A stretch of 64,000 nucleotides of DNA from a candidate division TM6 bacterium GW2011_GWF2_37_49 (GCA_000989955.1 LBTE01000003.1:33847-97846), one strand, 5' to 3'. Positions 1,137 to 60,646 are shown, numbered from the stretch's first letter. Numbers and translations: made by a program. The notes: a model not told the origin generated them from the sequence alone.

Positions 1137-1271
1137 ATACATCAGCTCTACACTTCGTTATGTAGCCACTAATCAGTTGTAGCGAAAAAACAATAAATTT
1201 ATCGCTTCGGCCTACGAACATTGATTGGGAGCTGTGTTACAGAGGTTTTTTATAAAAACTGCAAGAAGTGC
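1137..1271 (+). repeat. 135-bp dispersed intergenic element, copy 1 (+ defined as ATACAT...TGCAAAAAGTGC)
   Basis: atacatc at 1137, gattggg and aactgcaagaagtgc at family offsets; divergent copy. Confidence 0.7.
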
Positions 1272-1288
1272 CATCGATTAAATTTAAA

Positions 1289-1366
1289 TGGCGGGGCTGA
1301 CGAGACTCGAACTCGCGACCTTCCGCGTGACAGGCGGACGCTCTAACCAAACTGAGCTACAGCCCC
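1289..1366 (-). tRNA. tRNA-Asp(GTC)
   Basis: Reverse complement GGGGCTGTAGCTCAG...ccgcc-tGTCac-gcgg...GTTCGAGTC...CCA. Confidence 0.97.
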
Positions 1367-1444
1367 TCGAACTTTTAAAATGAATTTAACCGTTCTAAGG
1401 TTAAACCTATTGTGCCAAATATTTTGAATAATTCAAGAAAAAAA

Positions 1445-3331
1445 TCATAATTTTATAACCTTTACAATACTTGCAGCGTCTATTCCAGCATCACTTAATA
1501 ATTCTTGTGGGCTGCCAGATCGGGATATGTGGTCCAGGCCAAGCATCTGCACTCGTACATCGGAGTTAATTAAACTGCTTGCAATCATAGATCCGATTCC
1601 ACCATTGATGTAGTGATCTTCCACCGTAATCACGCGATTGTCAGACTTTTTTGCCGTCTTTAAAATCGTTTGTGCATCAAGCGGCTTGATGCTGTACAAA
1701 TCGATTACCGAGACCAAAAAGCCCTCTTTTTTCAGTATTTCATAAGCCTTTAATGCTTCGTGTAATGTTATACCGGCAGCAACAATACAACATCTGTCTT
1801 TTTGGCTTTGGCGCAACACTTTGCAGCCGCCGATCGCAAATTTTTCGTTGATATCGTAAAGCATTGGCGTATCAGCACGGGTTGTTCTGACGTACGAAAT
1901 ACCTTTATTATAATTTGCGCTTAATTCAATCAATTTATACGCTGAAACGCCATCGCTTGGATAAAGAATTACCGAATCAGGGATCGTGCTTATCATCGCA
2001 ATATCTTCAAGAGCCATCTGCGATGGGCCGTCTTGCCCAATCGAAACACCGCAGTGGGAGCCACAAAGGCGCAAAGCGTGCTTACCAACACCAGCCATGC
2101 GGATCTGATCAAATGCTCGCGTTAAAAATGCGCCAAATGTCGATACCAAAGCAATTTTGCCGCGCGCTTGCAAACCCGTGGCCACTCCAATCATATTTTG
2201 TTCAGCAATAAAGCATTCAATAAATCGTTCCGGATAATCTTTTGCAAACATATCTGAAAACGTTGAATTTTTAACGTCTCCATCAAGAGCTATCGCGTTT
2301 TTGCAAGACTTACCGATAGCTGCAAGCGCGTACCCATAAGCCTTACGTGTGGATAATTTTTTATCATCGGCAAACAAGGCCTTGTTTGGGTCTTTTGCCA
2401 AATCGATAGACACATGAGCCTGAACAACTTGCGCTTTTGACTTATCTGGCGCAGGGATTATATATTTAGTTTTTGATTTAAATCCAACATCTTTTTTGAA
2501 TCGCACCAGCATTTTTTGAATTAATTTTTCGGATTCATCAGCGCTTAGCGGCTTACCATGCCAGCTTTGCTTGCCTTCAATATCCGTAATTCCATAGCCT
2601 TTTTGCGTTTTTGCAATTATCATTGTAGGCTTGTTTTTGGATTTATGAGCTTTTTGTATTGCGTTAAAAATTTGTTTTACATCGTGGCCATTGACAGTCA
2701 AGGAGTTCCAACCAAAAGCCTTAAATTTGGCAGCGATCTTTTTAATATCTTGGTCAAGCATTGTTTGACCAGATTGGCCTAACCCGTTGCAGTCTACAAA
2801 GCCTATCAAGTTATCAGCCTTGTTGTACGCCGCAAGCTCGGCAGCCTCCCACACGGAGCCTTCTGCTATCTCTCCATCACCAAGCAACACATATGTTTTA
2901 TAGTCTAGTTTATCTAATTTCGCATTCAGAGCCATACCAAGGCCGATAGAAAGCCCCTGACCCAGCGAGCCAGTGGCCGCTTCGTTAAAAGCAAACCTTG
3001 GCGTTGGATGCCCCTCAAAAACAGAATTAAATTCACGCAAACTCATCATTTGCTCGTTTGTTATTACACCTGCATTTTTCCATGCGGCATAGACAACCGG
3101 TATTGCATGCCCCTTTGAAAGAATAAAACGGTCATTTGCAGGATTAGATGGATTTTTTGTGTCATAGCGCAAAAAATTAAAAAATATCACAGAAACAATA
3201 TCGGCTGCAGACATGCAAGAAGTTGGATGGCCAGATCTGCTCTTTGTTGTAGCGCGAATGGAATCTACTCGTAAATTTAACGCCTGGTGCTTTAAAAATT
3301 GTACTTTTTCTTTGTTTAAAGTATTTTTCAT
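1445..3331 (-). CDS. tkt: Transketolase (single-chain ~620-aa type)
   Basis: SGHPTS, DRFILSKGHA, TGSLGQG, GDGE TPP motif, IAEQNM, GQDGPSQMALED. Confidence 0.95.
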   Translation of the reverse strand: MKNTLNKEKVQFLKHQALNLRVDSIRATTKSRSGHPTSCMSAADIVSVIFFNFLRYDTKNPSNPANDRFILSKGHAIPVVYAAWKNAGVITNEQMMSLREFNSVFEGHPTPRFAFNEAATGSLGQGLSIGLGMALNAKLDKLDYKTYVLLGDGEIAEGSVWEAAELAAYNKADNLIGFVDCNGLGQSGQTMLDQDIKKIAAKFKAFGWNSLTVNGHDVKQIFNAIQKAHKSKNKPTMIIAKTQKGYGITDIEGKQSWHGKPLSADESEKLIQKMLVRFKKDVGFKSKTKYIIPAPDKSKAQVVQAHVSIDLAKDPNKALFADDKKLSTRKAYGYALAAIGKSCKNAIALDGDVKNSTFSDMFAKDYPERFIECFIAEQNMIGVATGLQARGKIALVSTFGAFLTRAFDQIRMAGVGKHALRLCGSHCGVSIGQDGPSQMALEDIAMISTIPDSVILYPSDGVSAYKLIELSANYNKGISYVRTTRADTPMLYDINEKFAIGGCKVLRQSQKDRCCIVAAGITLHEALKAYEILKKEGFLVSVIDLYSIKPLDAQTILKTAKKSDNRVITVEDHYINGGIGSMIASSLINSDVRVQMLGLDHISRSGSPQELLSDAGIDAASIVKVIKL

Positions 3332-9342: not shown

Positions 9343-9533
9343 GTTGCTACCAAAATTAGAATTTAAACTTATTGCAAAGATAAGTTGTTTATGCAGACAA
9401 GGGTTATTCAAATTACAAGCTTGAAGATGAATAAAAAAATTAAAAACCTTTCAGAAAAATGCTGGCAGATGCAGTAACAGCAACATCAAAACTTATATAA
9501 TTCCATCGCGACAAAACGCAGATTTAAGCAGGT

Positions 9534-9668
9534 ATACATCAGTTACGTATTACAGAACATGCGCAAGCATAGGCCTTGCTAGCATTTTGACAAAATTTAC
9601 AACTCGGCCTGCTTGGCGCGATTAGATGTGCTATTTCGAATAAAGTTTTAAAAAATTGCAAAAAGTAC
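9534..9668 (+). repeat. 135-bp dispersed intergenic element, copy 2
   Basis: atacatc 9534; ataggc, ttgacaaaatttac, gattag, cgaat, attgcaaaaagtac at fixed offsets. Confidence 0.8.
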
Positions 9669-9791
9669 ATGCGTACTTTAAAATATTTAATTCAGTGAAT
9701 GTGTAAAGTGCAACCTTATGAGTTATGTTAGCCTTCGTATGAATGTTTTCTTATAACTAAATTAATGCGCAATAAATATTAAGAAAGGCAC

Positions 9792-13947: not shown

Positions 13948-14008
13948 ACCGCTTTCGAAACCATGACTACAACTCATAATTACAAATCTCCGCAATCAGC
14001 GCAATACA

Positions 14009-14194
14009 ATTCCAAGTTGTTAAAGTACCTAAAATAAAGATTTTTGCGTTTGGTTGTAAATCTACGATTGGAAGCTAGCTGTAAATGGCAGTGGCATTTT
14101 TCCTTATTTTGAAAATTTTAATTCGGCAAGCCCCATCCAATCGCACGTTGCTGGCGGGGTCTAAAAAATTATAAATTTCTTGGCAAGGCCGATG
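14009..14194 (-). repeat. 186-bp near-identical inverted repeat, partner at 32605-32790
   Basis: Reverse complement matches with about 9 mismatches by manual count. Confidence 0.9.
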
Positions 14195-14228
14195 CAGCGC
14201 CAAAAAAGACCGGGCATACTTAATGTAT
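14094..14228 (-). repeat. 135-bp dispersed intergenic element, copy 3
   Basis: attcg, ccaatc, ctaaaaaattataaatttcttgg, gccgatg, aatgtat. Confidence 0.92.
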
Positions 14229-14268
14229 GCCCCTAAAAATCATGGCGTTGGCTTATGTTTTATATTTA

Positions 14269-15460: not shown

Positions 15461-15476
15461 TTTTGTGTAAAATCAA

Positions 15477-15611
15477 GCACTTTTTGCATTTTTTCCAAAA
15501 CTCATTCGCTAGCCCTCATCCAATCAGGCCCCGCCGGCCGCATCTAAAAAATTGTTAATTTCTTGGTAAAGCCGATGCAGCGCCAAAAAAGAAAGGGCAT
15601 ACTTGATGTAT
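15477..15611 (-). repeat. 135-bp dispersed intergenic element, copy 4
   Basis: gcactttttgca, attcg, ccaatc, ctaaaaaattgttaatttcttgg, gccgatg, gatgtat. Confidence 0.95.
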
Positions 15612-15641
15612 TCCCCTAAAAATCATGGGGTGGGTTGGGCA

Positions 15642-16894: not shown

Positions 16895-16980
16895 CTTAAT
16901 TCGTAAAATCAATTCATGGGCAAAATAGTGCAAAAAAGGCGTTAAAATCCATCATTAAAGCATGGCTACAAAAGCCGCTG

Positions 16981-17116
16981 GCACTTTTTGCAGCTTTTGA
17001 AAAAAGTTATTCGGCAGCAACGACCCTGTCATGCCCCGCCGGCCGCATCTAAAAAATTGTTAATTTCTTGGTAAAGCCGATGCAGCGCCAAAAAAGAAAG
17101 GGCATACTGAATGTAT
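16981..17116 (-). repeat. Dispersed intergenic element, copy 5 (136 bp)
   Basis: Nearly identical to copy 4 from gccccgccggccgcatct onward; one extra base in A tract. Confidence 0.95.
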
Positions 17117-17177
17117 GCCACTAAAAATCATGTAGTTGGCTGTGTCTTATTTTTTTGTAACCTATTCAAACTTAAGC

Positions 17178-19574: not shown

Positions 19575-19874
19575 ATGGATAAAAGACCAGATTTCAAAAG
19601 CTTTAAAGAAGAGGCTATGAAAAACGCAAAAGTAAGGGCGGAATACGAAGCTTTACGTCCTGAGTTTGAGCTCATGATGGAGTTTATCAGGGCGCGTAAG
19701 GTAGCAAAGTTATCGCAAAAAGCTCTGGCAAAAAAGCTAAAGCTTCAACAACCAGCAATCGCTAGACTAGAAAATGGTGGCTACGCCAAAACTTCTATTT
19801 CTAAACTCTCTAAAGTTGCCAGTATTTTGGGCTTCTCTCTCAAGATTTCTCTGCACGAAAAAAAACGAGCTTAA
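19575..19874 (+). CDS. XRE-family HTH protein (HigA-like antitoxin)
   Basis: RAEYEALRPEF, LSQKALAKKLKLQQPAIARLENG. Confidence 0.85.
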   Translation: MDKRPDFKSFKEEAMKNAKVRAEYEALRPEFELMMEFIRARKVAKLSQKALAKKLKLQQPAIARLENGGYAKTSISKLSKVASILGFSLKISLHEKKRA

Positions 19875-20003
19875 CTCGCAGTTTTTCCAAAACCCATTCG
19901 CCATCCACGACCCAATCGCTGCCAGCAGGCGGGATCTAAAAAATTGTTAATTTATTGGTAGAGTCGATAAGATCGAGACATTGAAGCAACATTATGAATG
20001 TAT
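19869..20003 (-). repeat. 135-bp dispersed intergenic element, copy 6
   Basis: attcg, ccaatc, atctaaaaaattgttaatttattgg, gtcgat, aatgtat at fixed offsets. Confidence 0.9.
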
Positions 20004-20040
20004 AGCCCTGAATATGGCAGCTTTGACGCGCTTAAGATAT

Positions 20041-24887: not shown

Positions 24888-27371
24888 TTATTCGGCATCA
24901 TCTACATCATCCTCATCATCCAAACAAGAGTCCAAGTTACGAATAGGAGCCTCAACTCCTTTTTCAAAGAAGTTTACTAAGCGCTTACTTCTAGACGGAT
25001 GTCGTAGTTTGCGAAGTGCTTTAACTTCAATTTGGCGAATTCGCTCACGCGTAACAGAAAAGTCTTTACCTACCTCTTCAAGAGTATGCTCTGAAGCAAC
25101 GTCAATACCAAATCGCATCTTCAAAACCTTTTCCTCACGAGGAGTCAAAGTTTTAAGAACTTCGCGAACTTTTTCTTTCAAATCTTCGTTAACAACAGCA
25201 TCAACTGGAGAGTATTCATTCTCATCCTCGATGAAATCTTTTAAAGATGTATCGTCACTATCGCCAACTGGTGTTTCAAGAGAGACTGGTTCTTTTGATA
25301 TTTTAATAATATTTTTTATCTTTTTTTCTTCTAAATTCAGCTCTTTGGCAAGTTCAGAATAAGTCGGTTCTCTACCAGCTTCTTGAATATAATTTCGAGT
25401 AATTTTATTGATCTTACTTAGGGTTTCAACCATATGTACAGGAACACGAATTGTACGTGATTGATCAGCAATTGCACGTGTTATAGCCTGACGTATCCAC
25501 CAAGTTGCATATGTTGAAAATTTAAAACCACGCTCAAACTCAAACTTTTCAACTGCTTTTAACAATCCAATATTACCCTCTTGAATCAAATCCAAGAAAT
25601 GTAAGCCTCTATTGATATATTTTTTTGCAATATTAACAACAAGCCGTAAATTTGCACGCGCAAGATCGTCTTTGGCCTCTTTATCTTTTTTCTGAGCCAA
25701 TGCAAATTGCATGTACAAAGACGCTATCTTCTCTTTTTGTAAGCCAGCCTCTTGCTCAGTTTTTTTAATCATCTTTTGAGAGCTACGAATGGATGATTCA
25801 AATCCTGCTATTTGATTAATATCGTCTTGTGTTTGTTTTTTAAGATTTTTATAAAACTTAAGTTTTTCATCTAATCCTTTAATTTCCGTTTCACGCTCTT
25901 GAATTTTGAAGACCAACTTTTCAATACGCTTACCAAATTTACGTATAAGTTTATTTGAATATTTGATGTCAGTAATCGCTTTTACGACGTTTTTCTTATT
26001 TTGATCAACCTTGGTAAACATTTCTTTTTTTTTGGCTTCACTTTCTAGCTGCCCACGATAGGATCGATAAATTTTATCCTCGTTTTCGATTAAATCTTTT
26101 ATTTTATTAAGATGCTCTAAAAGCCTAATCTTTTCCTCTTCAAATTTTGGAGAATTATCCTCATCAAAATCAGAAAATTGAATTATCTCTTTTAAAAACA
26201 AAGGATCGCGTTCAAGTCGCTCTGAAAACCCAACCAACTCTTTTGCAACAAATGGAAATTGTGATATACTGTCAATAGATTGCTTTTTACCTTCGGCTAT
26301 TTTATCAGCAATAACCTTTTCAGTCGTTTTATTCAAAAGAGGAATTTTCCCTATCTCCTTTAAATAAAGTTTAACCGGATCATTTAATTGGCTAGGTTCG
26401 ATAAAACTTTTTAATCTTTCTAGCTCTTTGTCATGCTCAAAATCATCGTCAAGTCCAACATATTCGGAACTTTCAAGTGAAGCCTTTAAATCTTTTTTGG
26501 CTGGCAATGCCCCAGATTCTTCTTCGCCAAAAAAACCACCTTCAGAAAGCCCACCTTCAAGCTCGTCCTGCATAATAAAATCTATATTCTCTTTTTCAAA
26601 CATGCTTACAAGCTCGTTTGTGTCTTCCTCTCCCAACTTGTTTTTTGATGTAAAGGCAAGCAATTCTTCATAGCTAAGAACACCCTCATTTTTACCTTTT
26701 TCAATTAATGCGGCTACCTGCTTTTCAAGTAGCTTGAGTGAATTTACCTGCGTAGCACCACTTTCCTCAGCTTCAATTAATACAAAATCTTCATCATCGA
26801 GAGAGACTTCATCCAGCCCAAGGTCCTTGATTGAATCTTTAATATTTGAGACATGCGCAATTTTCGATTTTTCATTCAACGCATGCGCAGATAGAACAAC
26901 ATTTTTTGTTTTTTTATTTTCGATAGCCGATGTCTTCAATAATTTTGCATTTTTAGGATTTTCCACTTTTATTTTTTCAGCCACCTTAACCTGATCTTTT
27001 GTTTCTACTAAAGCTTTTTTGTGCTCAATTTTAGCTGGCTTAGCTATTGATTTAATTTTAACAGAATATGGCTTTGCAATAATTTTCACTTTGACCTTGG
27101 CGGAACTTTTGGAAATCAAAGCATGACGTGTAGTAGCAGCTTTTGCAATAAATTTTTTGGCTTTTTTTACAAACTTAGCGTTTTTAGATTTTGTTAAATT
27201 TTGTTGTTTTTTTAAAGTTTTTGCAACCAACTTTTCAGCCTTTTTTTTTAGCTTAGATTGAACAGGCTTAGCTACTTTTTTTTGCAACTGAGCCTTTTTT
27301 TTGTCACCAGGCTTTGTCATCTTTTTATTCTCTTTTTTATTTATCTTTAATTTTTTAATCATTTTTTTCAT
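24888..27371 (-). CDS. rpoD: Primary sigma factor with long Lys-rich N-terminal extension
   Basis: [60 protein letters not shown]. Confidence 0.97.
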
Positions 27372-30128: not shown

Positions 30129-31127
30129 ATGAATTATCTATTAAAACGTTCAACATTTATTATTATTTTTTTAATTTACTGTCATGCAAATTTTTTGGAT
30201 CTAAAGCCTGCAATTCAAACAGAATTAAACACGAATCCGTCAAAATTATCTGCGCACACGCCAGATAACATCACAGAGCCTGAAAATATTATACACAAGC
30301 TAAAGAACTCGATCTCTTCACAAGATTCGTTTTTTTACATTCTACTGCTTTCATTTCTGGCAGGCATTTTTATAAGCTTCACACCATGCGTTTATCCAAT
30401 GATTCCGATAACTGCAGGTATTTTGCAAACACAGGCAACAACATCAATGTCTCACAATTTTCTGTCATCATTGTTTTACGTTCTTGGAATGGCCGTTATT
30501 TATGCTGGTCTTGGTGTTATGTCCGCCACCACGTCTATTGTTTTTGGTCAGTGGACATCAAATCCAATTTTTATATTTTTTATTGTTCTATTATTTTTAT
30601 TTTTGGCGTTTTCACTGTTTGGGTTTTATGAAATTAAAATGCCACAATTTTTAACCAGAACGCAAGACTCCCAAATTCAGGGATCCCAAACCAAAACCTC
30701 GCTGCCCAAGAGCTTTTTACTTGGTTTTTTTTCGGGCGCTATCGCGTCGCCGTGCATTACGCCGGCCCTGGCAATACTTTTGACATTTGTTGCAGACAAA
30801 GGCAACCCCGTGCTGGGATTTTTTGCCCTCTTCATTTTTGCGCTTGGAATGGGCACGTTATTGATAATCATCGGCACAGCATCATCTTCACTAAACGCCT
30901 TGCCAAGATCAGGTGAATGGATGCTTAAAGTTAAAGAATTTATTGGATTTTTGATGATTGCGATGAGTATTTATTTTTGCAAGCCTTTGATTTCTGCAAA
31001 AATAGCCTTCATGCTGTACTTATCTCTGTCAATATTCATTTTGGTGTTTTATGGGATAAAAATTGTACAAAACATTAAAAAACACCAAACGCCAAAATCC
31101 AATAACACCTCCCAAAACCCTCATTAA
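30129..31127 (+). CDS. DsbD/CcdA-type transmembrane electron transporter (no C-terminal thioredoxin domain)
   Basis: SFTPCVYPMIPI, ASPCITP, LPRSGEWM. Confidence 0.88.
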   Translation: MNYLLKRSTFIIIFLIYCHANFLDLKPAIQTELNTNPSKLSAHTPDNITEPENIIHKLKNSISSQDSFFYILLLSFLAGIFISFTPCVYPMIPITAGILQTQATTSMSHNFLSSLFYVLGMAVIYAGLGVMSATTSIVFGQWTSNPIFIFFIVLLFLFLAFSLFGFYEIKMPQFLTRTQDSQIQGSQTKTSLPKSFLLGFFSGAIASPCITPALAILLTFVADKGNPVLGFFALFIFALGMGTLLIIIGTASSSLNALPRSGEWMLKVKEFIGFLMIAMSIYFCKPLISAKIAFMLYLSLSIFILVFYGIKIVQNIKKHQTPKSNNTSQNPH

Positions 31128-31134
31128 AACAGCT

Positions 31135-31269
31135 ATACATTCATATTAGGCTTCCAAAAGCACGACCTGTTCGAACCAATCTAGAAATTTATAAATTTTT
31201 AAATACCTCCAGCAGACATCGATCTAGAGCGGTCTAAACAAGCATTTTTTCAAAAAGTGTAACTATTCA
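31135..31269 (+). repeat. 135-bp dispersed intergenic element, copy 7
   Basis: atacat 31135; ctagaaatttataaatttttaa at +46; ends tgtaactattca. Confidence 0.75.
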
Positions 31270-32259: not shown

Positions 32260-32511
32260 TTAAGATTTACAGCGGTCTAGGTCGCATTTATTTCTTTCAT
32301 GAATAACATTAGCCACATCACCAACTTTTTGAACAATTCGATCAATGCCTTCTTGCAAAAGTTGCGTTGTGTAGCTAGTTGGTTGAGGATTGAGTCTTCA
32401 TTGTGCAATAACCTCATCTAGTCTAGCAAGCCAGAATGCAGGAGGAAAGTCAATACAATTGAAGCAGCTGTAATTTCCGCTATGACACGTTGATCCTGTT
32501 GGTATAATACC
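32260..32511 (-). pseudogene. hisIE: HisIE relic (phosphoribosyl-AMP cyclohydrolase C-terminus plus phosphoribosyl-ATP pyrophosphohydrolase N-part)
   Basis: Manual translation GIIPTGSTCHSGNYSCF...LARLDEVIAQ*RLNPQPTSYTTQLLQEGIDRIVQKVG; internal TGA, both ends missing. Confidence 0.85.
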
Positions 32512-32570
32512 ATTCTAATTTTAAAACCTACAAAACATTGCGCCATTCCAAAACATGCATAGACAGACTG

Positions 32571-32705
32571 ATACATCGACTATGGCCTCTCGCATGCGGC
32601 TATTCATCGGCTCTACCAAGAAATTTACAACTTTTTAGACCCCGCCAGCAACGTGCGATTGGATGGGGCTTGCCGAATTAAAATTTTCAAAATAAGGAAA
32701 AATGC
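32571..32705 (+). repeat. 135-bp dispersed intergenic element, copy 8
   Basis: atacatc, catcggc, ccaagaaatttacaactttttag, gattgg, cgaat. Confidence 0.92.
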
Positions 32706-32790
32706 CCCTGCTATTTACAGCTGGCTTCCAATCGTAGATTTACAACCAAACGCAAAAAGCTTTATTTTAGGTACTTTAACAACTTGGAAT
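32605..32790 (+). repeat. 186-bp near-identical inverted repeat, partner at 14009-14194
   Basis: Direct manual comparison. Confidence 0.9.
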
Positions 32791-32980
32791 GAATTAGCCG
32801 TTGCATTTCATTCTTGACTTTGCCTGACTTTGCCCAGGCTCTTAGACTAGAACAAATTCAAGCTGTAATTTGCATCCAATATATTTCGGGTTAAATTCAT
32901 TGCATTACAATGGTATAGTGAATAAAATTAGAAATATAGACACGCCTAAGCAAATTTCATAAATAACAAAGAGGTTTAAT

Positions 32981-40438: not shown

Positions 40439-40532
40439 TTTTGATTTGATTATATCAAATTTGTTGGCGAATTAACGCATGAAATTATATATCGTCAAAA
40501 AATCGACCTGATCAAGCCTCAAAAATACGCAG

Positions 40533-40667
40533 GCACTTTGTGCACTTTTTTAAAATCACATTCGATAAACCAAGCCCAGTCATGGTCGGCAGAGCGCATT
40601 GTAAAATTTGTTAATTTCTTTACAAAGCCCATGCATCCGCACTTAGCGCAAGTTGTGGTTAATGTAT
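40533..40667 (-). repeat. 135-bp dispersed intergenic element, copy 9
   Basis: gcactttgtgca, attcg, taaaatttgttaatttctt, gcccatg, aatgtat. Confidence 0.9.
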
Positions 40668-40716
40668 AAGCGTGTTTATGATAGAGTTGGCGATATGGGT
40701 AAATTATAAAATATGA

Positions 40717-43927: not shown

Positions 43928-43972
43928 AATATTCGATTACACGCCCCAATTACATTCCTCAAAAATGCGCAG

Positions 43973-44107
43973 CAAGTTTTTGCACTTTTTTAAAATAGCA
44001 TTCGATAAAACCGACCCAATCGATGCTAGCGGGCGGACTTATAAAATTTGTTAATTCATTAACAAGGCCGACGCAGTCGAGATTTATGGCGACGATGATC
44101 AATGTAT
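43973..44107 (-). repeat. 135-bp dispersed intergenic element, copy 10
   Basis: tttttgca, attcg, ccaatc, taaaatttgttaattc, gccgacg, aatgtat. Confidence 0.9.
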
Positions 44108-44126
44108 GTGCCTGAAAATCAATGTT

Positions 44127-44744
44127 TTACTTCAATCGTTCTTGAATATCTAAAAGCTGTTTTTTAAACGATTTAATATTATCCCAGAATTCTTGGTCTT
44201 GCTTAAATGCTGGTTGAACCTGATCTTCGGCCGACAACTCTTGACTTAAAGTTGCACCAACAATATCATCCTCCGCAGGCTTTGCTGTTTGTTCTTCTAC
44301 GAAGGTTTCAGGTTCAGTTATTTTTGGTGTAAATTCGACAATTTCTGGTGCTTGAATTTCTTGAGCCAGTTCTTGAGTTTCAACCTTGGCTTCAAGCTTA
44401 ATTTCCAAAATTTCTGGTTGATCTGCTTGCACTGCAACTTCAGCCAAAATAGGCTCCGCTGCAGGCTCTTGAATATTTGACTTTGCAATTGATTGGATTT
44501 GTTCGGCTTTTTGTGCCAAGACGCTTGGAAGTTGCTGTTTGGCAACTGTTGGCGAAAGTTTTTCACCGTACAACATGTCGCGTATTGCTTCAAAGGTTAT
44601 CAGGTCTTCTTCGCTGTACTGCATTCCAGCGCGATTCAAATTAAATTGTTTTTCCCAGGTGCGTATTACAAATTTTTTGACCCCAAGCATTGTGGCGATT
44701 TCATCGGCCTTGTAATGCTTACTGTTTTGAGACATCTCCAGCAT
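44127..44744 (-). CDS. MerR-type HTH protein with acidic low-complexity tail
   Basis: YKADEIATMLGVKKFVIRTWEKQF...YSEEDL. Confidence 0.75.
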   Translation of the reverse strand: MLEMSQNSKHYKADEIATMLGVKKFVIRTWEKQFNLNRAGMQYSEEDLITFEAIRDMLYGEKLSPTVAKQQLPSVLAQKAEQIQSIAKSNIQEPAAEPILAEVAVQADQPEILEIKLEAKVETQELAQEIQAPEIVEFTPKITEPETFVEEQTAKPAEDDIVGATLSQELSAEDQVQPAFKQDQEFWDNIKSFKKQLLDIQERLK

Positions 44745-49784: not shown

Positions 49785-49949
49785 ATTTTTCCCCCTAAAA
49801 TTTTAAGCATATTAAACAGCACATCAGTCTGTGTGAAATATTGTGGAATATATGGTATAACAATTTTACAGGATTTCTCAAGAATAATTTTAGTGTTTTT
49901 CCGTATTCAGAAATAAAATACGATGGTCAAATTCATGACAAATAGGGTT

Positions 49950-50084
49950 ATACATCGACCCGCATCTTCTAAACGTTCGCATTTATAAGGCTTGCAGAAG
50001 AATTGACAAATTTTATGACACGGCCTTCCAGTCAAGATCCAGAGCTGTATTTCAATCACTTTTTTTCAAAACTGTAACTATTCA
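49950..50084 (+). repeat. 135-bp dispersed intergenic element, copy 11
   Basis: atacatc 49950; aattgacaaatttta in the core; ends aaactgtaactattca. Confidence 0.75.
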
Positions 50085-54881: not shown

Positions 54882-54973
54882 TGTTTAATTAATGGTCTAA
54901 GTTTTAGAGGCTTCTACTCGTTAAAAAACATACAGTCAAGCCTGGCCACAAATCAAGTATCTCAAATCAGAGG

Positions 54974-55108
54974 GCTGTTTTTGCAGTTTTTTGAAAAATT
55001 GTTCGGTAGCTCAGATCAGATCGTGTGCCGCAGGGCGGCACTAAAAACTTGTTAATCTGTCCGCGGTCTCGATTCAATCAAATATTTCGCCAACCATAGC
55101 CGATGTAT
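54974..55108 (-). repeat. 135-bp dispersed intergenic element, copy 12
   Basis: tttttgcag, gttcg, ctaaaaacttgttaat, tcgat, gatgtat at fixed offsets. Confidence 0.85.
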
Positions 55109-55257
55109 CATGCTTCCAATGGCGGCTTTTCGCCCCCCCCCTTTTTTTTTATTTTCTATTTGAATTTATCGTCAGGTATTTGCTAGACTAAACTTAGAAT
55201 CAACAGAGAATTAACTTTGCAAAACAAACGAGTGTATATTTATGAGGAGGATGTACC

Positions 55258-56052
55258 GTGAGTGTGATTAAAAAATTAATGTTGCTGGCGATGTTTGCTG
55301 GCTTAGCCGTAACAACCGGTTATGCGATGACGCAGTCTAAGGAATCTGAATTAACTGGCGCAGCATGGATGGGCGATACTGAACGTATAAAATCACTTAT
55401 TGAATCGGGAGCGAATCCAAATTATAGTGATAAGTCCGAGGATACACCTTTACAGAATGCAATATACAGCAACAAAGTTGAATGCATTAAGTTACTTATT
55501 AAATTGGGAGCGAATCCAGATTTAATAGATAAATACGGCAATACTCCATTAATGAGTGCGATACAACGCGGCAATGTTGAGGTTGTTACGGCGCTACTTG
55601 ACGCCGGAGCGAATCCAAGTCAGGTTGATCGTAGCGGCATGAGCCCTTTAGTGAAGGCAGCATATTTAGACAGCCATGAATGCATTCCACCACTTATTAA
55701 ATTTGGAGCGAATCCAAATGGAATAGATGATGTCGGCATGCCTCCATTAATTGAAGCGGTAAAACACAACAATGTTGAATCTGTTAAGGCGCTACGTAAG
55801 GCCGGCGCTAATCCATGTGTGACTTTTGATAACGGCTTGACTCCCCTGCACTATGCATTCGCGGTCTTGAATCACAAGAATGGTATTGCTATGATTAAAT
55901 TATTAATCAGCCTTGGAGCAGATTATAAAGCGAAAAATTCAACCGGACACACTCCATTACAAGTTGCAAATAAAAGAAACTACACCAAACAAGAACTTAT
56001 CGAAATTGCTAAGTTTATTAAGGAATATGAATACACATATAACACCTTATGA
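55258..56052 (+). CDS. Secreted ankyrin-repeat protein
   Basis: Signal peptide; six GANP...G.TPL..A repeats; GAGGAG RBS. Confidence 0.93.
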   Translation: MSVIKKLMLLAMFAGLAVTTGYAMTQSKESELTGAAWMGDTERIKSLIESGANPNYSDKSEDTPLQNAIYSNKVECIKLLIKLGANPDLIDKYGNTPLMSAIQRGNVEVVTALLDAGANPSQVDRSGMSPLVKAAYLDSHECIPPLIKFGANPNGIDDVGMPPLIEAVKHNNVESVKALRKAGANPCVTFDNGLTPLHYAFAVLNHKNGIAMIKLLISLGADYKAKNSTGHTPLQVANKRNYTKQELIEIAKFIKEYEYTYNTL

Positions 56053-56119: not shown

Positions 56120-56135
56120 TTCTTTGTGCGCCAGT

Positions 56136-56176
56136 GCCGATGTATTGGCGTGTTTGTGATCTTGTGATTGATGTAT
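56136..56176 (-). repeat. Partial copy (13) of the 135-bp element
   Basis: gccgatg and gatgtat at the family spacing; remainder not recognisable. Confidence 0.5.
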
Positions 56177-56216
56177 ACCTGTGTAGGTCGCATGATCGAC
56201 CGGTGTATCGAACAAT

Positions 56217-58940
56217 TTATTTTACCGCAATCGATTGACCATAAACGGCTTTGACCGGAAGCCCAAGTGCATTTTCAAATAATGCGTAGTTTGGCTCGGA
56301 TAACATTGAGGTAAAGGCATCTTTTTGGCCAACGCTGCTTACAACTTTAATGGCTTCTCTAACAAATTCAAGAGCTGTTTTATCTGGTCCCTTGCCGACT
56401 TTCATAGGTAGATAAGGTGCGTAAAGAGATCTAAACTTTTGCATGCCATCATGCAATGATATTGAAGCTTCAACAAGTTCATTTTTGGCATCATCATAAG
56501 CTTTTTTGTTGGCCGTTTTTTTATGATTAGCTCTCAAGGCTTTTACGGCTTTTGCAATGACATCTGAAGCATCAGACATTTTTTCATTCGATTCTTTGGT
56601 GCACTTTTCAAATTCCTCGGAAGGGTTTATTGTAAATACACCGCTTGAATTGCGCAATTTTATTGAAGTTGCTTTGCTTGTTATAAGATTGTTATATGCG
56701 TCTGATACCATTTTTATACCACGCAAAAATACAGCAATCAATGCATCAGATGTTTCGCTTTTACCTAGCAAAAAGTCTTTTGGAAGCGTTGCTTCACGCA
56801 ATGCTTGAAATTGTTGTAAATAAATATCTAGCGTCGATACAAGCAATTCATCTTGTACTTCTGATTTTGGCTCGCCAAGTCGAGGTTTGGCAATGTTCTG
56901 GGTGATTGTTTTTTTGCCTGACTTTATTTCATTTAATATAGCTAACGTCTTTTTTAATGAATCGATATCTTTTTTCTCAAAGCCTGCACTGATAACACTT
57001 TTAATTGTAGTTGTAACAAACGGAATAAGCGCTCCCATTCGTTTTTTCAATTCCACCGTCTGATCCGCTGCGGATTTTGGCAGCTTGTCGCCAAGGTCTG
57101 CAATAAGTCTTAAATTTGCGTGAACTATGAGTTTTTGATCACTGAACGAAAGACCATCAGTGATTAACGGTACGACTGTTTCGGTTGTTGCTTGTATTAT
57201 TTCGTTGTAATTCAAGGCCGTGCTTCGAGTTGTTAAAATGGCTTCTTGTAACACAGATGAATTTTGTTGAGCTGATTGCACTGATTTTATATCATCGGCA
57301 TACACCTTTGTGCTCAAATTATCAATATATTTTGAGATAGCCGAAGGCATGTTTGATTGCAGTTCTTGCATTGATGTGTTTGCGTACTGCTTTGTTTGGG
57401 CAAGCCTTGCGCATAAAATCATTGTATGAGTGCGTATCTTCTGAATTTTATCGAAATCATTTTTGAGACTTGAATCATTCAACACGTCTTTGTTTAGGAG
57501 CGCTGCTTTGAGAAAAAACAAAAATGCTGCATTTGGATTGAGTATTAGGCTGCATGCGTCCTGATCTTCAGAATTAATTAAACTTGTTAATGTATCGATA
57601 TTTATACCGCATCCGTCAATTTCCTCCGGAGTTATAGATACTTTGCAAATCAGTGGAGCTCCAGGATTGCCAGCCCCCTCTTCTTCAAAATTGAATTCAA
57701 CGACAAATTCATGCTCTGTATTATCAATTGTTACAGGATCTAGTTTAATTTTAAAATTTTTATTGTAGTAATCTTCGCTTTCTGTGGCCTTAATAAATGC
57801 TTCGACTAAATTTTGGCCTATAAAATTAGCAACCATGGATATTTTTTGAGCACAATCACTATCAGCCGCTGGCTCTCCGTAAGCGCTTGGTGAATGTGGC
57901 GACTTACCATCTTCAAGATCATCACGAAGTCTATCTATTTCGCGTTCATAATCTTTATCGTCTTGTTGCTCAATTCCAAGCAAAGTAAGAAGACCTGAAA
58001 TGACCGTTCCTCCGCTCAAAATCCCGCTTCCGACCAAAAATCCTCCAGTTACCTTTTTTTTCGTTGAATTAGCTTGCGCTTCTTCATCACCATCAACATT
58101 TTTAGCTGTATGCTTCTTTTTAAAAGTAAGACCTTCGCCAAATTGTATGGCTTTATCTGTCAAAAACCTTGCAGTTGTTTCAATATCGTGTGATTTAACA
58201 AGTTCTTTAACCGATAGTGGTGCGCGTTTTATATATTCGTCCAACTTTTTCTTTTTAGCTTCAATAGCTTTTTCACGCTTTTTCTTGTCTTCCTCTGATT
58301 CTACGATTGGAGTTTTTTTTAATTCATCAAGTTCAACTATTAATTCAATAAGTTTTTGTTTTGTAATTCCGTCGGTGGATTCGGCTTTTTTAATTGCAGG
58401 TACACCATCGAATAGTTTGTCGATATCAGCCGCGAACTTTGCATCAAGTTTTTCACTTACACGACTTACCGCCTTTGTTACGGCTGGTATTATACGATGC
58501 TTCAATGCGACACTGTCTGGATCTATTTGTCTAAGAGCATCTAACGCAGCCTTTTTTTGACCATCGGTTGTATCAGGGTTATCAGAGTTTATTATTTGTT
58601 GTAATTTTGCGGATTCATCGGCTTTTGCTTGGCGAGCTGAATCCGGATCTAATACCGCAAGATGCTTAATAGCCTCAAGCCTATCCGCAGTTGACGTCTT
58701 TGTATCAGCTATTTTTTTGTTATAATCCGCTATAGCTTTTTTTTTATCTCCGCTGTATGCTCTTTCAGCTTCTTCTGTCCGCTTTTTTTCAGCAGCTGCT
58801 CGTGACGCTTTGAGCAAATTGGCCGCATCAGACTGTTTTGCCGCATCTGATGATGCAGAGCGTACTGATCCATGAAAGCCAAACAACATCGTCAGCAAAG
58901 CTGCCGATTTAAGTAATCTATTATTCATTATCTCTTTCAT
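56217..58940 (-). CDS. Large hypothetical exported helical protein with internal hydrophobic segment
   Basis: 907-aa ORF, signal-like N-terminus, TM-like GGFLVGSGILSGGTVISGLLTLLG. Confidence 0.75.
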   Translation of the reverse strand: MKEIMNNRLLKSAALLTMLFGFHGSVRSASSDAAKQSDAANLLKASRAAAEKKRTEEAERAYSGDKKKAIADYNKKIADTKTSTADRLEAIKHLAVLDPDSARQAKADESAKLQQIINSDNPDTTDGQKKAALDALRQIDPDSVALKHRIIPAVTKAVSRVSEKLDAKFAADIDKLFDGVPAIKKAESTDGITKQKLIELIVELDELKKTPIVESEEDKKKREKAIEAKKKKLDEYIKRAPLSVKELVKSHDIETTARFLTDKAIQFGEGLTFKKKHTAKNVDGDEEAQANSTKKKVTGGFLVGSGILSGGTVISGLLTLLGIEQQDDKDYEREIDRLRDDLEDGKSPHSPSAYGEPAADSDCAQKISMVANFIGQNLVEAFIKATESEDYYNKNFKIKLDPVTIDNTEHEFVVEFNFEEEGAGNPGAPLICKVSITPEEIDGCGINIDTLTSLINSEDQDACSLILNPNAAFLFFLKAALLNKDVLNDSSLKNDFDKIQKIRTHTMILCARLAQTKQYANTSMQELQSNMPSAISKYIDNLSTKVYADDIKSVQSAQQNSSVLQEAILTTRSTALNYNEIIQATTETVVPLITDGLSFSDQKLIVHANLRLIADLGDKLPKSAADQTVELKKRMGALIPFVTTTIKSVISAGFEKKDIDSLKKTLAILNEIKSGKKTITQNIAKPRLGEPKSEVQDELLVSTLDIYLQQFQALREATLPKDFLLGKSETSDALIAVFLRGIKMVSDAYNNLITSKATSIKLRNSSGVFTINPSEEFEKCTKESNEKMSDASDVIAKAVKALRANHKKTANKKAYDDAKNELVEASISLHDGMQKFRSLYAPYLPMKVGKGPDKTALEFVREAIKVVSSVGQKDAFTSMLSEPNYALFENALGLPVKAVYGQSIAVK

Positions 58941-58941
58941 T

Positions 58942-60408
58942 TCACTTCCTTGTTTTGCCTGCGATTACGTCTTTAATATCTTGTATTTGCTTTTCATCTT
59001 CTTGTCGTGATTTTTGAAGTTCAGCAAGCTGTTTTTGATTGTCTTTTAAACGGTCTGTTTCGTCGTTAAATTTTCTAAAGTTAGCTGTAATTTGTTCTTT
59101 TTGTTGCTCAATATCAAGCCTTTCATCAAGTGACCTCCATGTCGTTTCGTTAATCTTATCAAGCAACTCTTGCGCGTAGGCATCTACTCCTTTTAACGGC
59201 TGAGTCGCTTCAGTAGATTGTGGATCTTTACCCTCTTTTTGTTTTTGCAATTCATCGTGCTTAGCCTTAAAATCAGCTTCTATTTTTTTTATAGATTCTT
59301 CTCTTTTTTTAATCTCATCTACAAGTTTAACTGTCTCTAGATACGTTTCATAAATTTTTACCTCCAAAGGCCCAATCGCAGCCTCTGCAGATTTTTGTGC
59401 TGATTTTAATATTGCTTGAGTCTCTTTATTTTTTGGATCAGCTTTTACCGCGACTTGCAATGCGGCTACAGTCTCAACAAGCTGTTGTGGCGTTCTTTTA
59501 TCAACATATACTGCTCGCTTTGCTGCTTCTTTGGCATTTTCTTGAGCTGTTTCTAATTTATTAATTTTGGTATAAACTTCTTTCCTAGCAGCTTCTAAAT
59601 CGGATTTTTGTTGAGTCAATTTTTCAATCTCGGCGCCTGACTTGGATTTATCTTCCATTTTTTTATCAATTACCGCAATTTGTTTGGTAAGTTTACCAAC
59701 TTTCGCCGTTTCATCTTTTATTGCTTTGCCTAGCTCTTTGATTTGCTTTTGTGTTTTTTTTATACCTTCTTGAACTTGATAGCGTAAAGATTGGTATTTA
59801 ATGAGCTGATCAGGTGTTTTTAAGCCTTTCTTTGCCAATTCTTCAATAGCATCAATTCCTTGATCAACAAATAAACGGTTAGCGTTACTTGATTTCGCCA
59901 AGGTATCTTGTTTATCAGCCTTTCTAGATTCAGCATCTTTTTTAAAATTTTGAAATCGCTGTTCGATAGCCTTAAATACAGAATTAAATGCCTTTGGCGC
60001 ACCTTCTTGCTCTTTTTTGACCTGCGCATCCGCAAAATTAGTCGCATCAGGTTGTTGCTTTGGCTGTGGTTGGAATATTGGCTTGGGCATGAAGGGTTGA
60101 TCAGGAGCTAGTTTATGCGGAGTCTGTGCCTGTAAAAATGGCTTGATTGTTGATGGAGAATCTGGCTGTTTTGGAGGAATATCTGTTGAAGATGGCAGCC
60201 TATGCCCACCTATAACAGGCACCTTTTTTGTTTGTGGGTCCGTTGGCACTTTGCCTTTGGACCAAGGTTGACCAGGTTTCTGATATTCTTCTTGTTTCTT
60301 TTCCGCTTTATCAACTTTCCACTCACTGCCTTCCATTCCAAAAACGTTGTCCGATACGAGTATGACTAGGCTGATAAACAATATTTGTGATATTCCGTGA
60401 CGCTTCAT
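58942..60408 (-). CDS. Secreted Pro-rich/coiled-coil protein, paralog family member 1
   Basis: MKRHGISQILFISLVILVS leader; KAFNSVFKA, LKTPDQLI, RTPQQLVETVAAL shared with neighbours. Confidence 0.8.
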   Translation of the reverse strand: MKRHGISQILFISLVILVSDNVFGMEGSEWKVDKAEKKQEEYQKPGQPWSKGKVPTDPQTKKVPVIGGHRLPSSTDIPPKQPDSPSTIKPFLQAQTPHKLAPDQPFMPKPIFQPQPKQQPDATNFADAQVKKEQEGAPKAFNSVFKAIEQRFQNFKKDAESRKADKQDTLAKSSNANRLFVDQGIDAIEELAKKGLKTPDQLIKYQSLRYQVQEGIKKTQKQIKELGKAIKDETAKVGKLTKQIAVIDKKMEDKSKSGAEIEKLTQQKSDLEAARKEVYTKINKLETAQENAKEAAKRAVYVDKRTPQQLVETVAALQVAVKADPKNKETQAILKSAQKSAEAAIGPLEVKIYETYLETVKLVDEIKKREESIKKIEADFKAKHDELQKQKEGKDPQSTEATQPLKGVDAYAQELLDKINETTWRSLDERLDIEQQKEQITANFRKFNDETDRLKDNQKQLAELQKSRQEDEKQIQDIKDVIAGKTRK

Positions 60409-60511
60409 TATTTTTCCTTTCTCAATTTATAACTGCACTAGCACACGTATCACGAATATAGATAGTTGTTGAAGAAAATGAAATAAAATAATTATTTATT
60501 AATTTTTATAT

Positions 60512-60646
60512 CGAGTTTTATTGATAATCGAAAAGCGTATCTGAAACCAACGTCCAGATCATGCCTGGAAGCCCGCATCTAAAAAAATATTATTTTCTTG
60601 TTAGCGCCGATTGGTAGGCGCGTTTTGACGAATGGGGTTGATGTAT
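60512..60646 (-). repeat. 135-bp dispersed intergenic element, copy 14
   Basis: cgcatctaaaaaaatattattttcttg, gccgat, gatgtat at fixed offsets; other end degenerate. Confidence 0.8.

Follow-up and report, generated by a model that had tools for sequence, protein, structure and literature searches.

A dispersed, fixed-length intergenic element of about 164 bp, evenly spaced in the genome of a candidate division TM6 bacterium

The window analysed here is a 64,000-nt stretch of contig C3 from an uncultivated groundwater bacterium (assembly of 23 contigs, 1.487 Mb, 92% complete). It contains 13 copies of a small, non-coding, A+T-rich, multi-copy and mostly intergenic element. A profile HMM was built from the 13 full window copies and used to scan the genome with nhmmer; window coordinates equal C3 coordinates minus 33846. 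The scan returned exactly 13 matches inside the window, five on the + strand and eight on the − strand. A sequence-only reading of this DNA had listed 14 copies of a dispersed, fixed-length family. The family is real, and 13 of the 14 match the profile; the remaining one, a "partial" copy at 56136, had no profile match at E < 0.01. The copies and their nhmmer scores are as follows.

1113..1275, + strand: element copy, core ∼164 bp, ATACAT at 1137 (C3:34959-35121, 107 bits)
9510..9672, + strand: element copy, ATACAT at 9534 (C3:43356-43518, 107 bits)
14004..14091, − strand: long-form 3′ arm on the copy at 14094, ending in an inverted-repeat tip (from the inverted repeat and the tip match; 14004 counted manually from the printed sequence)
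14092..14252, − strand: mosaic element copy, ATACAT read on the − strand from 14228 (130 bits)
15475..15634, − strand: element copy, the best-scoring in the genome (139 bits)
16977..17140, − strand: element copy whose 5′ end is a terminator-like hairpin and T-run (134 bits)
19871..20027, − strand: element copy (122 bits)
31112..31269, + strand: element copy starting in the final codons of the ORF at 30129-31127 (92.5 bits)
32507..32800, + strand: long-form unit (∼295 bp) of a young subfamily (core 123 bits; subfamily alignment; right end, ∼32800, approximate)
40529..40691, − strand: element copy (124 bits)
43969..44128, − strand: element copy (123 bits)
49926..50084, + strand: element copy (102 bits)
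54971..55129, − strand: element copy (107 bits)
60513..60670, − strand: element copy, one of three near-identical (104 bits)

Across the genome, the profile scan gave 241 matches, of which 197 were near full length and 44 partial, indicating few degraded relics. The unit is ∼164 bp long and begins 23 bp upstream of the hexamer ATACAT, where information content rises abruptly; it fades near +140. The most conserved part is internal, and the ends are sharp and non-symmetric. ATACAT is invariant in the near-full copies (197/197), and the islands listed from the window were recovered, at their fixed offsets, in the genome-wide consensus. The 22-nt island noted in the first reading occurs at six sites with ≤3 mismatches, against 0.02 expected from shuffles. 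Profile self-comparison and pairing tests found no overall palindrome, as had been stated. A weak short palindrome lies near +74 to +83.

The length of the element is held while its sequence drifts. Model columns 26-160 span exactly 135 nt in 155 of the 197 near-full copies, 136 nt in one and 116-134 nt in 41. Many of the 41 shorter copies look like 3′ local-alignment trimming. The 135-bp core of the sequence-only reading therefore stands as a spacing kept genome-wide, although the true unit is ∼164 bp. Insertions occur in only 11/197 copies, gaps affect ≤5/197 copies in any interior column, and conservation in an ungapped alignment anchored on ATACAT stays sharp to about +135. Mean pairwise identity was 0.573, as against 0.575 predicted from the column profile alone, and the variable columns are therefore saturated. 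Indels are thus near-absent despite saturation. An element whose length and islands are kept while the rest drifts looks more like a selected, putative protein-binding site than a decaying repeat. Overall, these data support the reading of a genuine family, not described before, whose length is strict and whose spacers are free; they point to a double-stranded DNA site in which spacing is important.

The element is not coding: any given reading frame was open in at most 40 of 187 copies, in agreement with the earlier statement that none is shared. Nor is an RNA or single-stranded DNA fold conserved. MFE z-scores were −0.5 and −0.3 and RNAalifold predicted 0 consensus pairs, in contrast to bacterial MITEs, whose transcripts form a long stable stem-loop (PMC2229807). 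The best corrected mutual information was 0.17, without a Watson-Crick pattern, and the pairing excess over independence was ≤0.06 on every diagonal. The lack of fold and covariation is consistent with a double-stranded DNA site. An Rfam scan of the window at gathering thresholds returned three tRNAs only, and a scan of three copies at E up to 1 returned no match. According to our own, crude ORF picks, on which all gene neighbourhoods rest, 24/197 copies overlap an ORF by >30 nt. Genome-wide, copies occur on either strand and in intergenic regions of every kind, with a near-random orientation relative to neighbouring genes (65/46/45/38). The proposal of a structured 3′ RNA fails because there is no structure and this orientation is near random. 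The element might still act as RNA, whether it encodes a small RNA or is part of a UTR and read via linear motifs. Many copies lie 30-60 nt past a stop codon, and a terminator-like hairpin and T-run is present at the 5′ end of three window copies, including sites at 17119-17101 (copy at 16981) and 14232-14212 (copy at 14094). However, copies also occur in divergent regions and no promoter-like site was seen at a fixed element position; together with the structural, Rfam and orientation data, this makes an RNA role extremely improbable.

The strict length had been attributed to helical phasing. A period of 10.5-10.75 bp in AT content was the top spectral peak, in the two outer thirds of the element and not in the middle third, but its significance was marginal (p 0.01-0.07, depending on the null) and conservation itself was not periodic (p 0.97). 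We also scored the element against an IHF-like consensus. At ≤1 mismatch, IHF-like sequences were present in 64/187 copies at register −21..−9 and in 46/187 at register 47..59, against a background of 0.18% per position; exact matches numbered 23 and 8 of 187, respectively, and a typical copy has two mismatches. The genome encodes two HU/IHF-family proteins, both scoring below the curated IHF and HU cut-offs.

A strong DNA gyrase site, in which two wrapping arms flank the region of cleavage, might also display a periodic pattern confined to the arms. The E. coli gyrase motif is described as 130 bp long, its central part being flanked on either side by a region in which GC content is periodic (PMC6379681), and the element is of the same order of length. 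BIME-2 repeats, as presented in that source, provide a precedent for dispersed repeats as gyrase sites (PMC6379681), and even spacing would suit supercoil management. Nevertheless, the E. coli motif, in the same account, is degenerate and read indirectly (PMC6379681) and is not a repeat family, whereas the element has sharp ends and invariant, specific islands such as ATACAT (197/197). As the periodicity is marginal and the element is 164 bp rather than 130 bp, we regard a gyrase site as very unlikely.

The absence of terminal inverted repeats, noted in the first reading, holds for the core and not for all copies. MITE-type terminal inverted repeats on the 164-bp core were rejected by profile self-comparison, which found no inverted match between the ends. 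By contrast, the copy at 32571 is part of a longer unit of ∼295 bp, the tips of which are inverted repeats; the copy at 14094 carries the 3′ arm of this form. The unit at 32507..32800 comprises a left tip (32507-32530), the core (32548-32707) and a 3′ arm whose right tip is degenerate; the left arm was matched here, at C3:66353, with one mismatch. It belongs to a young subfamily of about 14-20 copies with 85-97% identity. By manual count, the long-form tips match in inverted orientation at 9/9 bases at the tip and 18/26 overall, and none of 184 copies examined had both tips within two mismatches. TA, a frequent target duplication of bacterial MITEs (PMC2229807), lies outside 5/9 left and 2/5 right tips of the long form. 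The copy at 14094 is a mosaic, with a 5′ third like the copies at 15477 and 16981 and 3′ two thirds like the young subfamily (HSPs from +35/+48 to +226 at 89-97%); 14009-14228 and 32571-32790 form an inverted repeat of 90% identity. Junctions in mosaic copies fall near +14 and +35 to +48. Thirteen copy pairs, involving 19 copies, are ≥80% identical only from about −23 to +140 and have unrelated flanks, some on different contigs. These data indicate that the bare core is copied as a discrete unit. In the three near-identical copies (C3_94492, C3_98732 and C3_100729), the shared identity runs from −77 to +293; they were duplicated along with neighbouring paralogous genes. The claim that the family does not resemble a MITE is therefore only partly upheld: the core lacks inverted repeats and a fold, but there is a young subfamily with inverted tips, the core is copied as a unit and mosaics occur.

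Such copies raise the alternative of a purely selfish, non-autonomous mobile element, whose islands would be a platform for a transposase or recombinase and which would bring the host no gain. One long-form tip abuts a 40-aa fragment of an IS200-family transposase, and the genome contains further remnants of mobile genes, namely an IS3-type ORF, IS4/5 fragments and a split IS91 gene, with two IS200 fragments in all. On the other side, no element-like ends were found around the resident transposase remnants. DDE_3, TnpB and IS110 had no match in the 92%-complete genome. Target-site duplications of 3-8 nt were not above background in 187 copies over a grid of boundaries, where old ones would have eroded, nor were any present in the 19 younger, core-precise copies. 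No target motif was found, and no conserved bases occur outside the left edge; the conserved CAA at the element edge could in principle be a mobile-element target.

The copies are evenly spaced. The coefficient of variation (CV) of the spacing was 0.52, as compared to 0.905 ± 0.059 for the null, with 0/1000 nulls as low; when region type and length were matched in the null, it was 0.57 versus 0.927 ± 0.064 (null minimum, 0.74). Spacing ranges from 1.7 to 11 kb (5th to 95th percentile) and is typically ∼6 kb, with genes between copies. Only six pairs of neighbouring copies are <600 nt apart, about a third of usable intergenic regions hold a copy, and copy orientation showed no relation to GC skew. 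No copy is present on a contig of 57.5 kb that looks accessory or foreign, which is among the points favouring a selfish element. Even spacing could likewise reflect avoidance of nearby insertions, or target immunity, instead of function. However, hard exclusion cannot explain copy number and CV together, because ∼237 copies would need a 4-kb exclusion, which gives a CV of 0.31 versus the observed 0.52-0.57.

The family was seen in this lineage only. It is present in metagenome relatives at 70-92% identity, in some cases at shared sites, but the genomes of 70 sampled relatives yielded weak single matches only. Copies are retained at shared sites despite ∼30% divergence at 4-fold sites. All five orthologous pairs align ungapped, four of them having been found via a fixed-spacing 20-base pattern that forces conservation and the lack of indels from +1 to +88. 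Over the five pairs, identity climbs with the information content of the family (58%, 66%, 73% and 86%). After removal of the ascertaining pattern columns, the top information class was 82% identical, versus 70.5% at 4-fold sites (p 2e-4). Four indel events per 86 substitutions were counted in non-element intergenic DNA of the same contigs, as against none in the element. In the sole pair found otherwise, identity showed no trend with information content (88%, 80%, 70% and 88%) and the absence of indels was not significant by itself. Family-conserved columns diverge less between orthologs, although the way in which the relatives were found biases this test in part.

The flanks of six copies in relatives map to two different places in this genome, an observation that a selfish element would also accommodate. 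The persistence of copies at the same sites argues against such an element, as does the intact length and islands of copies that are mostly mutually saturated, with few partial relics. Taking these points with the missing duplications, target motif and matching transposase ends and with the poor fit of hard exclusion, we consider a purely selfish element possible but unlikely.

The breaks in synteny, in contigs of relatives that had been selected for carrying the element, bear equally on another alternative. In this, the element would be a target of site-specific recombination, with accessory arms of the kind known from res, cer/psi or attP, and would allow blocks of genes to be inverted or shuffled. 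At three shared regions (upstream of groES, at C2:21.2 kb and at C6:101.4 kb) the copies of the relative and of this genome point in opposite directions, a 13-15-nt remnant of the element tail lies beside an inverted copy, and the mosaic junctions near +14 and +35 to +48 could be read in the same way. The genome encodes three tyrosine recombinases, but two resemble standard XerC and XerD proteins; the third adjoins an IS91-family gene. Moreover, no dyad-symmetric core site is apparent, bar the short palindrome mentioned above, and breakpoints would be intergenic in any case, where about one third of usable regions hold a copy. We judge a recombination site to be quite improbable.

Our preferred explanation, which we put forward tentatively and with slightly less than even confidence, is a lineage-specific element of ∼164 bp and ∼240 copies that works as double-stranded DNA, serving as a protein platform of fixed geometry, spread by mobility, retained by selection and possibly organising the chromosome. 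The short islands, at their exact distances, would be bound by one or more sequence-specific proteins, and an HU/IHF-type bending protein may join them to form a defined wrapped or bent nucleoprotein complex. The family would have spread by some form of mobility, after which old copies would stay put while selection protects the islands and forbids indels; the benefit to the host is likewise something we infer. The even spacing of ∼6 kb is suggestive of a role across the whole chromosome, for instance in delimiting supercoil or loop domains. A selfish element would account equally well for the young copies, the inverted-repeat tips, the core-precise copies and the mosaics. A more specific form of the preferred explanation, which we hold to be conceivable but on the unlikely side, is that the copies are evenly spaced nucleoprotein anchors, seeded by a mobile element and then adopted by the cell. 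In these, a bending protein and a sequence-specific partner would form a wrapped complex on the 164-bp platform and delimit domains of ∼6 kb in the small chromosome, as a bacterial counterpart of insulators or loop anchors, with each copy under selection. As the organism is uncultivated, tests would have to be made in vitro or on metagenomic data.

Bacteria commonly have dispersed intergenic repeats, whose function is rarely clear. We did not find described together the combination present here, namely a long non-palindromic unit, almost no indels despite saturation, conserved islands at fixed offsets and significantly even spacing. If the copies are selected, they would represent ∼240 sequence-defined sites for chromosome organisation or insulation in a small, probably host-dependent bacterium, and a clear case of a mobile element turned chromosomal infrastructure. 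If they are selfish, target immunity in a very small element would have left its mark in the even spacing, and this too would be unusual.

Among known systems, IS200/IS605 and IS91-type (HUH) elements resemble the family in lacking terminal inverted repeats and target duplications, and remnants of both are present in this genome. HUH elements need subterminal hairpins, however, which are unsupported here, and the ends of the resident remnants are unlike those of the element. In PATE-like derivatives of IS200/IS605, each end has a subterminal hairpin, and the left flank contains a conserved tetra- or pentanucleotide that serves as the target. A PATE-like element was rejected: hairpin z-scores at the element ends (−0.33 and −0.12) were no better than those of flank controls (−0.59 and −0.41), and the left edge has no conserved bases outside it. 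Integron attC sites have imperfect inverted repeats that fold as single strands and stand in arrays of one orientation next to an integron integrase. An attC was likewise rejected, in line with the first reading, as there is no fold, copies occur in both orientations genome-wide and the recombinases score best as Xer-type, below the integron-integrase cut-offs. The 1.7-11 kb spacing with intervening genes sets the family apart from CRISPR, with its short repeats a constant short distance apart and its unique spacers, as had been asserted, and the absence of an overall dyad, with a pairing excess of ≤0.06 on every diagonal, from the 127-bp imperfect palindrome ERIC/IRU. The E. coli gyrase motif, as described, shares a long site with a centre and two arms, and a helical period in the composition of the arms, which in the element is marginal.

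The CcrM-associated intergenic repeat (CIR) of Caulobacter and Brucella is described as lacking terminal inverted repeats and containing a conserved DNA motif (PMC2229807), both of which recall the element; the CIR motif, in that description, is a methyltransferase site, and no such site was identified in the element. Correia elements (CREE/NEMIS) of Neisseria are likewise high-copy, intergenic, non-coding repeats, of about 100-155 bp; the present family has ∼240 copies. According to the published outline, an IHF-binding site lies inside the 155-bp form, which is located almost exclusively between genes (PMC2229807), and Correia elements have been linked to rearrangements (PMC9778887); in the present family, candidate IHF-like matches recur at two fixed registers and synteny is broken at some copies. 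The same outline gives Correia elements 24-bp terminal inverted repeats, TA ends, target duplications and transcripts that fold into long stem-loops (PMC2229807). Compared by description only, the element core differs in having no inverted ends or fold and in showing no duplication above background: 24-26-bp inverted repeats with TA ends are absent from it, and inverted tips are confined to the subfamily of ∼20 copies.

REP/BIME sequences of enterobacteria are dispersed intergenic repeats like the present family, and some BIME forms bind IHF. REPs are short GC-rich palindromes in alternating orientation, whereas the element is a single 164-bp non-palindromic unit; its lack of palindromic structure and its single copies agree with the initial view that it is not a REP. 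In the accounts cited, REP/BIME sequences are nucleoid-protein binding sites that may contribute to genome organisation (PMC6379681; PMC2817692).

The 14 places listed by the sequence-only reading were read and oriented, and the 13 full copies were aligned to build a profile HMM. These copies constitute one family, with five on the plus strand of the window and eight on the minus strand. The profile recovered the 13 and no other copy in the window; the remaining listed copy, at 56136, gave no match. The 22-nt island singled out in the sequence-only reading had six matches at up to three mismatches, as compared to 0.02 expected. The source assembly is a draft of 1,486,996 bp in 23 contigs (37% G+C, 92% completeness, 2.8% contamination). 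Across this genome, the profile yielded 241 matches at E<0.01, of which 197 were near-full, starting no later than model position 11 and ending no earlier than 153. The other 44 were partial, so relics are few. By our arithmetic, the element accounts for ~2.5% of the genome, with a density of ~1 copy per 6 kb.

Information content was calculated from 187 copies anchored on the ATACAT hexamer (+1), with no gaps allowed. The 5′ edge of the element is sharp: information starts 23 nt upstream of ATACAT, at a CAA-containing edge. At the 3′ edge, it fades gradually at ~+135 to +140, and the flanks carry none. The unit is therefore ~164 bp. The 135-bp core described earlier is indeed of fixed length, model columns 26 to 160 spanning exactly 135 nt in 155 of the 197 near-full copies, but it is not the full conserved unit. 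The islands described with it were all found at fixed offsets across the genome-wide copies. Indels were almost absent among the near-full copies: insertions occurred in 11 of the 197, and each interior column was gapped in five copies at most. Pairwise identity across the 135-nt core averaged 0.573, essentially the value expected for independent draws from the column profile (0.575), indicating that the variable columns are saturated. For 33 copies, a neighbour of >90% identity exists.

A coding function was rejected: the best frame was open in only 40 of the 187 copies, in agreement with the earlier observation that the copies share no reading frame. A structured RNA or single-stranded DNA was rejected on several grounds. 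The MFE z-scores of the two strands were −0.5 and −0.3 (80 copies), RNAalifold predicted zero pairs, and the ends and centre of the element folded no better than flank controls in regional folding. The highest corrected mutual information was 0.17 bits, a Watson-Crick pattern was absent, and pairing on every anti-diagonal was at most 0.06 above independence. A stem of at least 5 bp around ATACAT was present in 32.6% of copies versus 26.5% when the arms were swapped between copies. A search of Rfam at the gathering score returned three tRNAs and left the element unmatched, and three element copies had no Rfam match at E up to 1. Similar DNA was not found in plasmid and phage collections.

Gene context was taken from crude ORF-based picks of 1242 genes. 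Both neighbouring genes lay on the element's strand for 65 copies and on the opposite strand for 46; 45 copies lay between convergent genes (5′ gene on the element's strand, 3′ gene opposite) and 38 between divergent genes (5′ gene opposite, 3′ gene on the same strand). Orientation relative to genes therefore hardly matters, and the placement after genes in the same direction that is apparent inside the window does not generalise genome-wide. Neither GC skew nor the strand of local genes was related to orientation. The structured 3′ RNA proposed from the sequence alone thus failed on two counts, a conserved fold being absent and orientation being of little consequence, and we regard an RNA role as extremely improbable. 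Of the four sequencing runs listed as containing the window, none was of RNA.

Regulatory signals were also considered. The copies contained 18 promoter-like sites versus 15.3 expected, none at a fixed position in the element, which argues against a promoter role. A terminator role was rejected since terminator-like hairpins were confined to the subfamily of copies 14094 and 16981. In these two copies, a 7–8-bp hairpin with a T-run incorporates the invariant ATACAT (14212–14232 and 17101–17119, respectively, both on the minus strand) and resembles an intrinsic terminator; it is absent from the rest of the family. Copy 15477 has nearly the same sequence as this hairpin, yet was not flagged by the terminator scan.

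At the level of double-stranded DNA, A/T-rich motifs related to one another recur in the profile near −13, +55 and +106, all in direct orientation, and a short palindrome lies at about +74 to +83. We also scored the copies for the IHF consensus. On the reverse strand, register −21 to −9 had 23 exact occurrences and at most one mismatch in 64 of the 187 copies; register 47 to 59 had eight exact occurrences and at most one mismatch in 46. The background was 0.18% per position, and the typical element copy had two mismatches. The genome has two HU/IHF-family genes (C1:288292–288558 and C9:22203–22469), whose products both scored under the curated IHF and HU cut-offs.

Support for the helical phasing suggested by the sequence-only reading was marginal. 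The AT content had its strongest period at 10.5–10.75 bp in the outer thirds of the element and not in the middle (p 0.01–0.07, depending on the block null), but conservation was not periodic at 9.5–11.5 bp (p 0.97). As described, the E. coli gyrase motif spans 130 bp, comprises a centre and two periodic arms, and is degenerate (PMC6379681). The element resembles the motif so described in the AT period of its outer thirds and its non-periodic middle; it differs in possessing invariant hexamers where the gyrase motif is degenerate (PMC6379681). Overall, a specific gyrase site seems to us highly improbable.

The distribution of the copies is more even than chance. Copies occupied 201 of 1219 intergenic regions, comprising 51 of the 181 between convergent genes, 36 of the 187 between divergent genes and 114 of the 851 between co-directional genes. 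Start-to-start spacing of 230 profile matches averaged 5.9 kb with a CV of 0.52. Placement in the same number of random intergenic regions yielded a CV of 0.905 ± 0.059, the observed value being reached in 0 of 1000 trials. When region type and net length were matched in the null, the CV was 0.57 for the real copies and 0.927 ± 0.064 for the null (null minimum, 0.74). Gaps were depleted at both extremes: those of <1.5 kb made up 2.7% versus 14% in the matched null, and those of >12 kb 6.4% versus 16%. A hard-exclusion (parking) model was rejected because it could not reproduce copy number and CV together: ~237 copies required a 4-kb exclusion and gave a CV of 0.31. An element that is purely selfish and shows target immunity is a rather unlikely explanation in our estimation; retention of the copies by selection is favoured because old copies persist intact and their spacing is even.

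Among the large contigs of the source assembly, C4 (57,565 bp; loci L065–L067) alone gave no element, and switching off the search filters did not change this. A single strand carries its genes, among which are a type I restriction-modification system, histidine kinases, an ammonium transporter and a TraG/TrwB-like ATPase. C4 may represent either the recent acquisition of an island or mis-binning; the contamination figure is 2.8%. Three further ORFs of the genome were noted. The RpoD of the window (24888–27371; 827 aa) carries an N-terminal extension of ~200 aa preceding its match to the RpoD model. The ORF at 55258–56052 contains three tandem-like repeats of 99 nt (33 aa), and its product may be an ankyrin-type repeat protein. 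By eye, the N-terminus encoded at C6:107772–109160 looks like that of an ATP/ADP translocase, which, if true, would fit a host-dependent lifestyle.

Several observations bear on how the family spread. About 14–20 copies, including window copy 32571, have in common a longer unit from ~−65 to +230, at 85–97% identity. The left tip of this long form adjoins at least 20 copies, and the right tip matches the left as its inverted complement (9/9 at the tip, 18/26 overall, by hand count). Both tips within two mismatches were found in none of 184 copies. Copy 14094 is a mosaic: its 5′ third resembles the neighbouring copies 15477 and 16981, and the 3′ part, together with an 85-nt arm, resembles the young, long-form subfamily. 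In 13 pairs (19 copies), some on different contigs, identity of 80–92% was confined to ~−23 to +140 and the flanks were unrelated; the bare core was therefore copied or converted as a discrete unit. Target-site duplications were seen neither at element boundaries nor at the younger core-precise copies. In the window, three adjacent large ORFs on the minus strand (58942–63999) have many repeat segments in common (D4, D5, D7–D10 and D12) and represent a tandem paralogous gene family, the element copies 3′ of the genes having been duplicated along with them.

A parent transposon was not found among the transposase and recombinase genes of the genome, none of which had element-like flanks. These genes include two Xer-like recombinases, one IS3-type ORF and weak IS4/5-type fragments. 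A third tyrosine recombinase, also Xer-like, lies on C13 (382–2382; locus L070); directly after it comes an IS91-family transposase gene in two pieces, as overlapping ORFs of 187 and 206 aa. The DDE_3, TnpB and IS110 families had no match in the source genome. A role of the element as a recombination site appears improbable. IS200-family remnants occur at C6:42531–42740 (98 aa; locus L071) and C2:13957–14082 (40 aa; locus L072). The start of the latter coincides exactly with a long-form arm tip, as if the gene had been cut by the element or by a rearrangement. A short palindromic repeat of the CCAGG...CCTGG type is present beside the former (L071, ~1870–1900) and 3′ of the copy with ATACAT at C11:11326; with similar flanking bases at both sites, this hairpin may be a REP-like or IS200-end sequence.

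The range of the family is narrow. A sequence-only covariance model run on 40 relatives (24 from the same family, 16 from other families of the order) found nothing convincing, its one match having E 4e-4. A further 30 genomes of the family gave single matches of 15–18 bits in four genomes. As a range probe, we used a pattern of 20 bases at fixed spacing, which fits 120 of the copies in the source genome. In 185,579 species genomes, its own excluded, the pattern matched one stretch, which the profile did not confirm; in metagenome contigs, it matched at least 48. Among the matches listed, these scans gave 49 loci: 33 were at least 98.5% identical to the source genome, 13 were relatives at 69–96% identity, and three (L011, L022 and L023) were rejected as chance matches unconfirmed by the profile. 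The relatives' 13 loci, among the matches listed, contained 17 profile matches.

By flanking synteny, five copies in relatives are orthologous to source-genome copies, and all five pairs aligned without gaps over 163–164 nt. Identity of the orthologues climbed with the information content (IC) of the family, from 58% (IC<0.2, n=85) through 66% and 73% to 86% (IC≥1, n=250), as compared to 70–71% at 4-fold degenerate sites of the flanking genes. Non-element intergenic DNA of the same two contigs had four indel events per 86 substitutions; the elements had none. Four of the five pairs were found via the 20-base pattern, such that 20 conserved columns and the lack of indels over +1 to +88 were built in. 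With the pattern columns removed, the top IC class still had 82% identity (152/185, p 2e-4 versus 0.705); the one pair found independently of the pattern had no trend of identity with IC. Because the way in which the relatives were found biases this test in part, we consider selection at individual sites likely but not proven. The stronger argument for selection is at the family level: ~200 copies are mutually saturated, their length is intact and relics are few.

The relatives also differ from the source genome around the element. The flanks of six copies in relatives map to two different places in the source genome. At three shared regions, including C6:101.4 kb, the relative's copy has the opposite orientation, and upstream of groES the inverted copy is adjoined by a short remnant of an element tail. 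We claim no excess of breakpoints, since the relatives' contigs were chosen for carrying the element. When DNA contigs of two runs were aligned at 80% likeness, short contigs broke at copies, the joints being cross-mapping between copies. In one relative with 92% identity, ~850 extra bases lie directly 3′ of the orthologous copy (L018:1325–2170 versus C5:21437–21460); at this element edge, either the relative has gained an insertion or the source genome has undergone a deletion.

In the reading that we tentatively favour, at a little under an even chance, the islands at exact distances on double-stranded DNA would be a platform for a defined protein-DNA complex. The family would have spread by some form of mobility, and intact old copies would then have been retained by selection, possibly for chromosome organisation. 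We judge recombination-site, gyrase-site and RNA roles less likely than either this platform or the selfish element. No described equivalent was found in the part of the literature that was searched. The closest described systems are Correia elements, compared by description, and BIMEs. The terminal inverted repeats, palindromes and folded transcripts that define these systems fail in the element, which is therefore of the same dispersed-intergenic-repeat kind but a member of neither.
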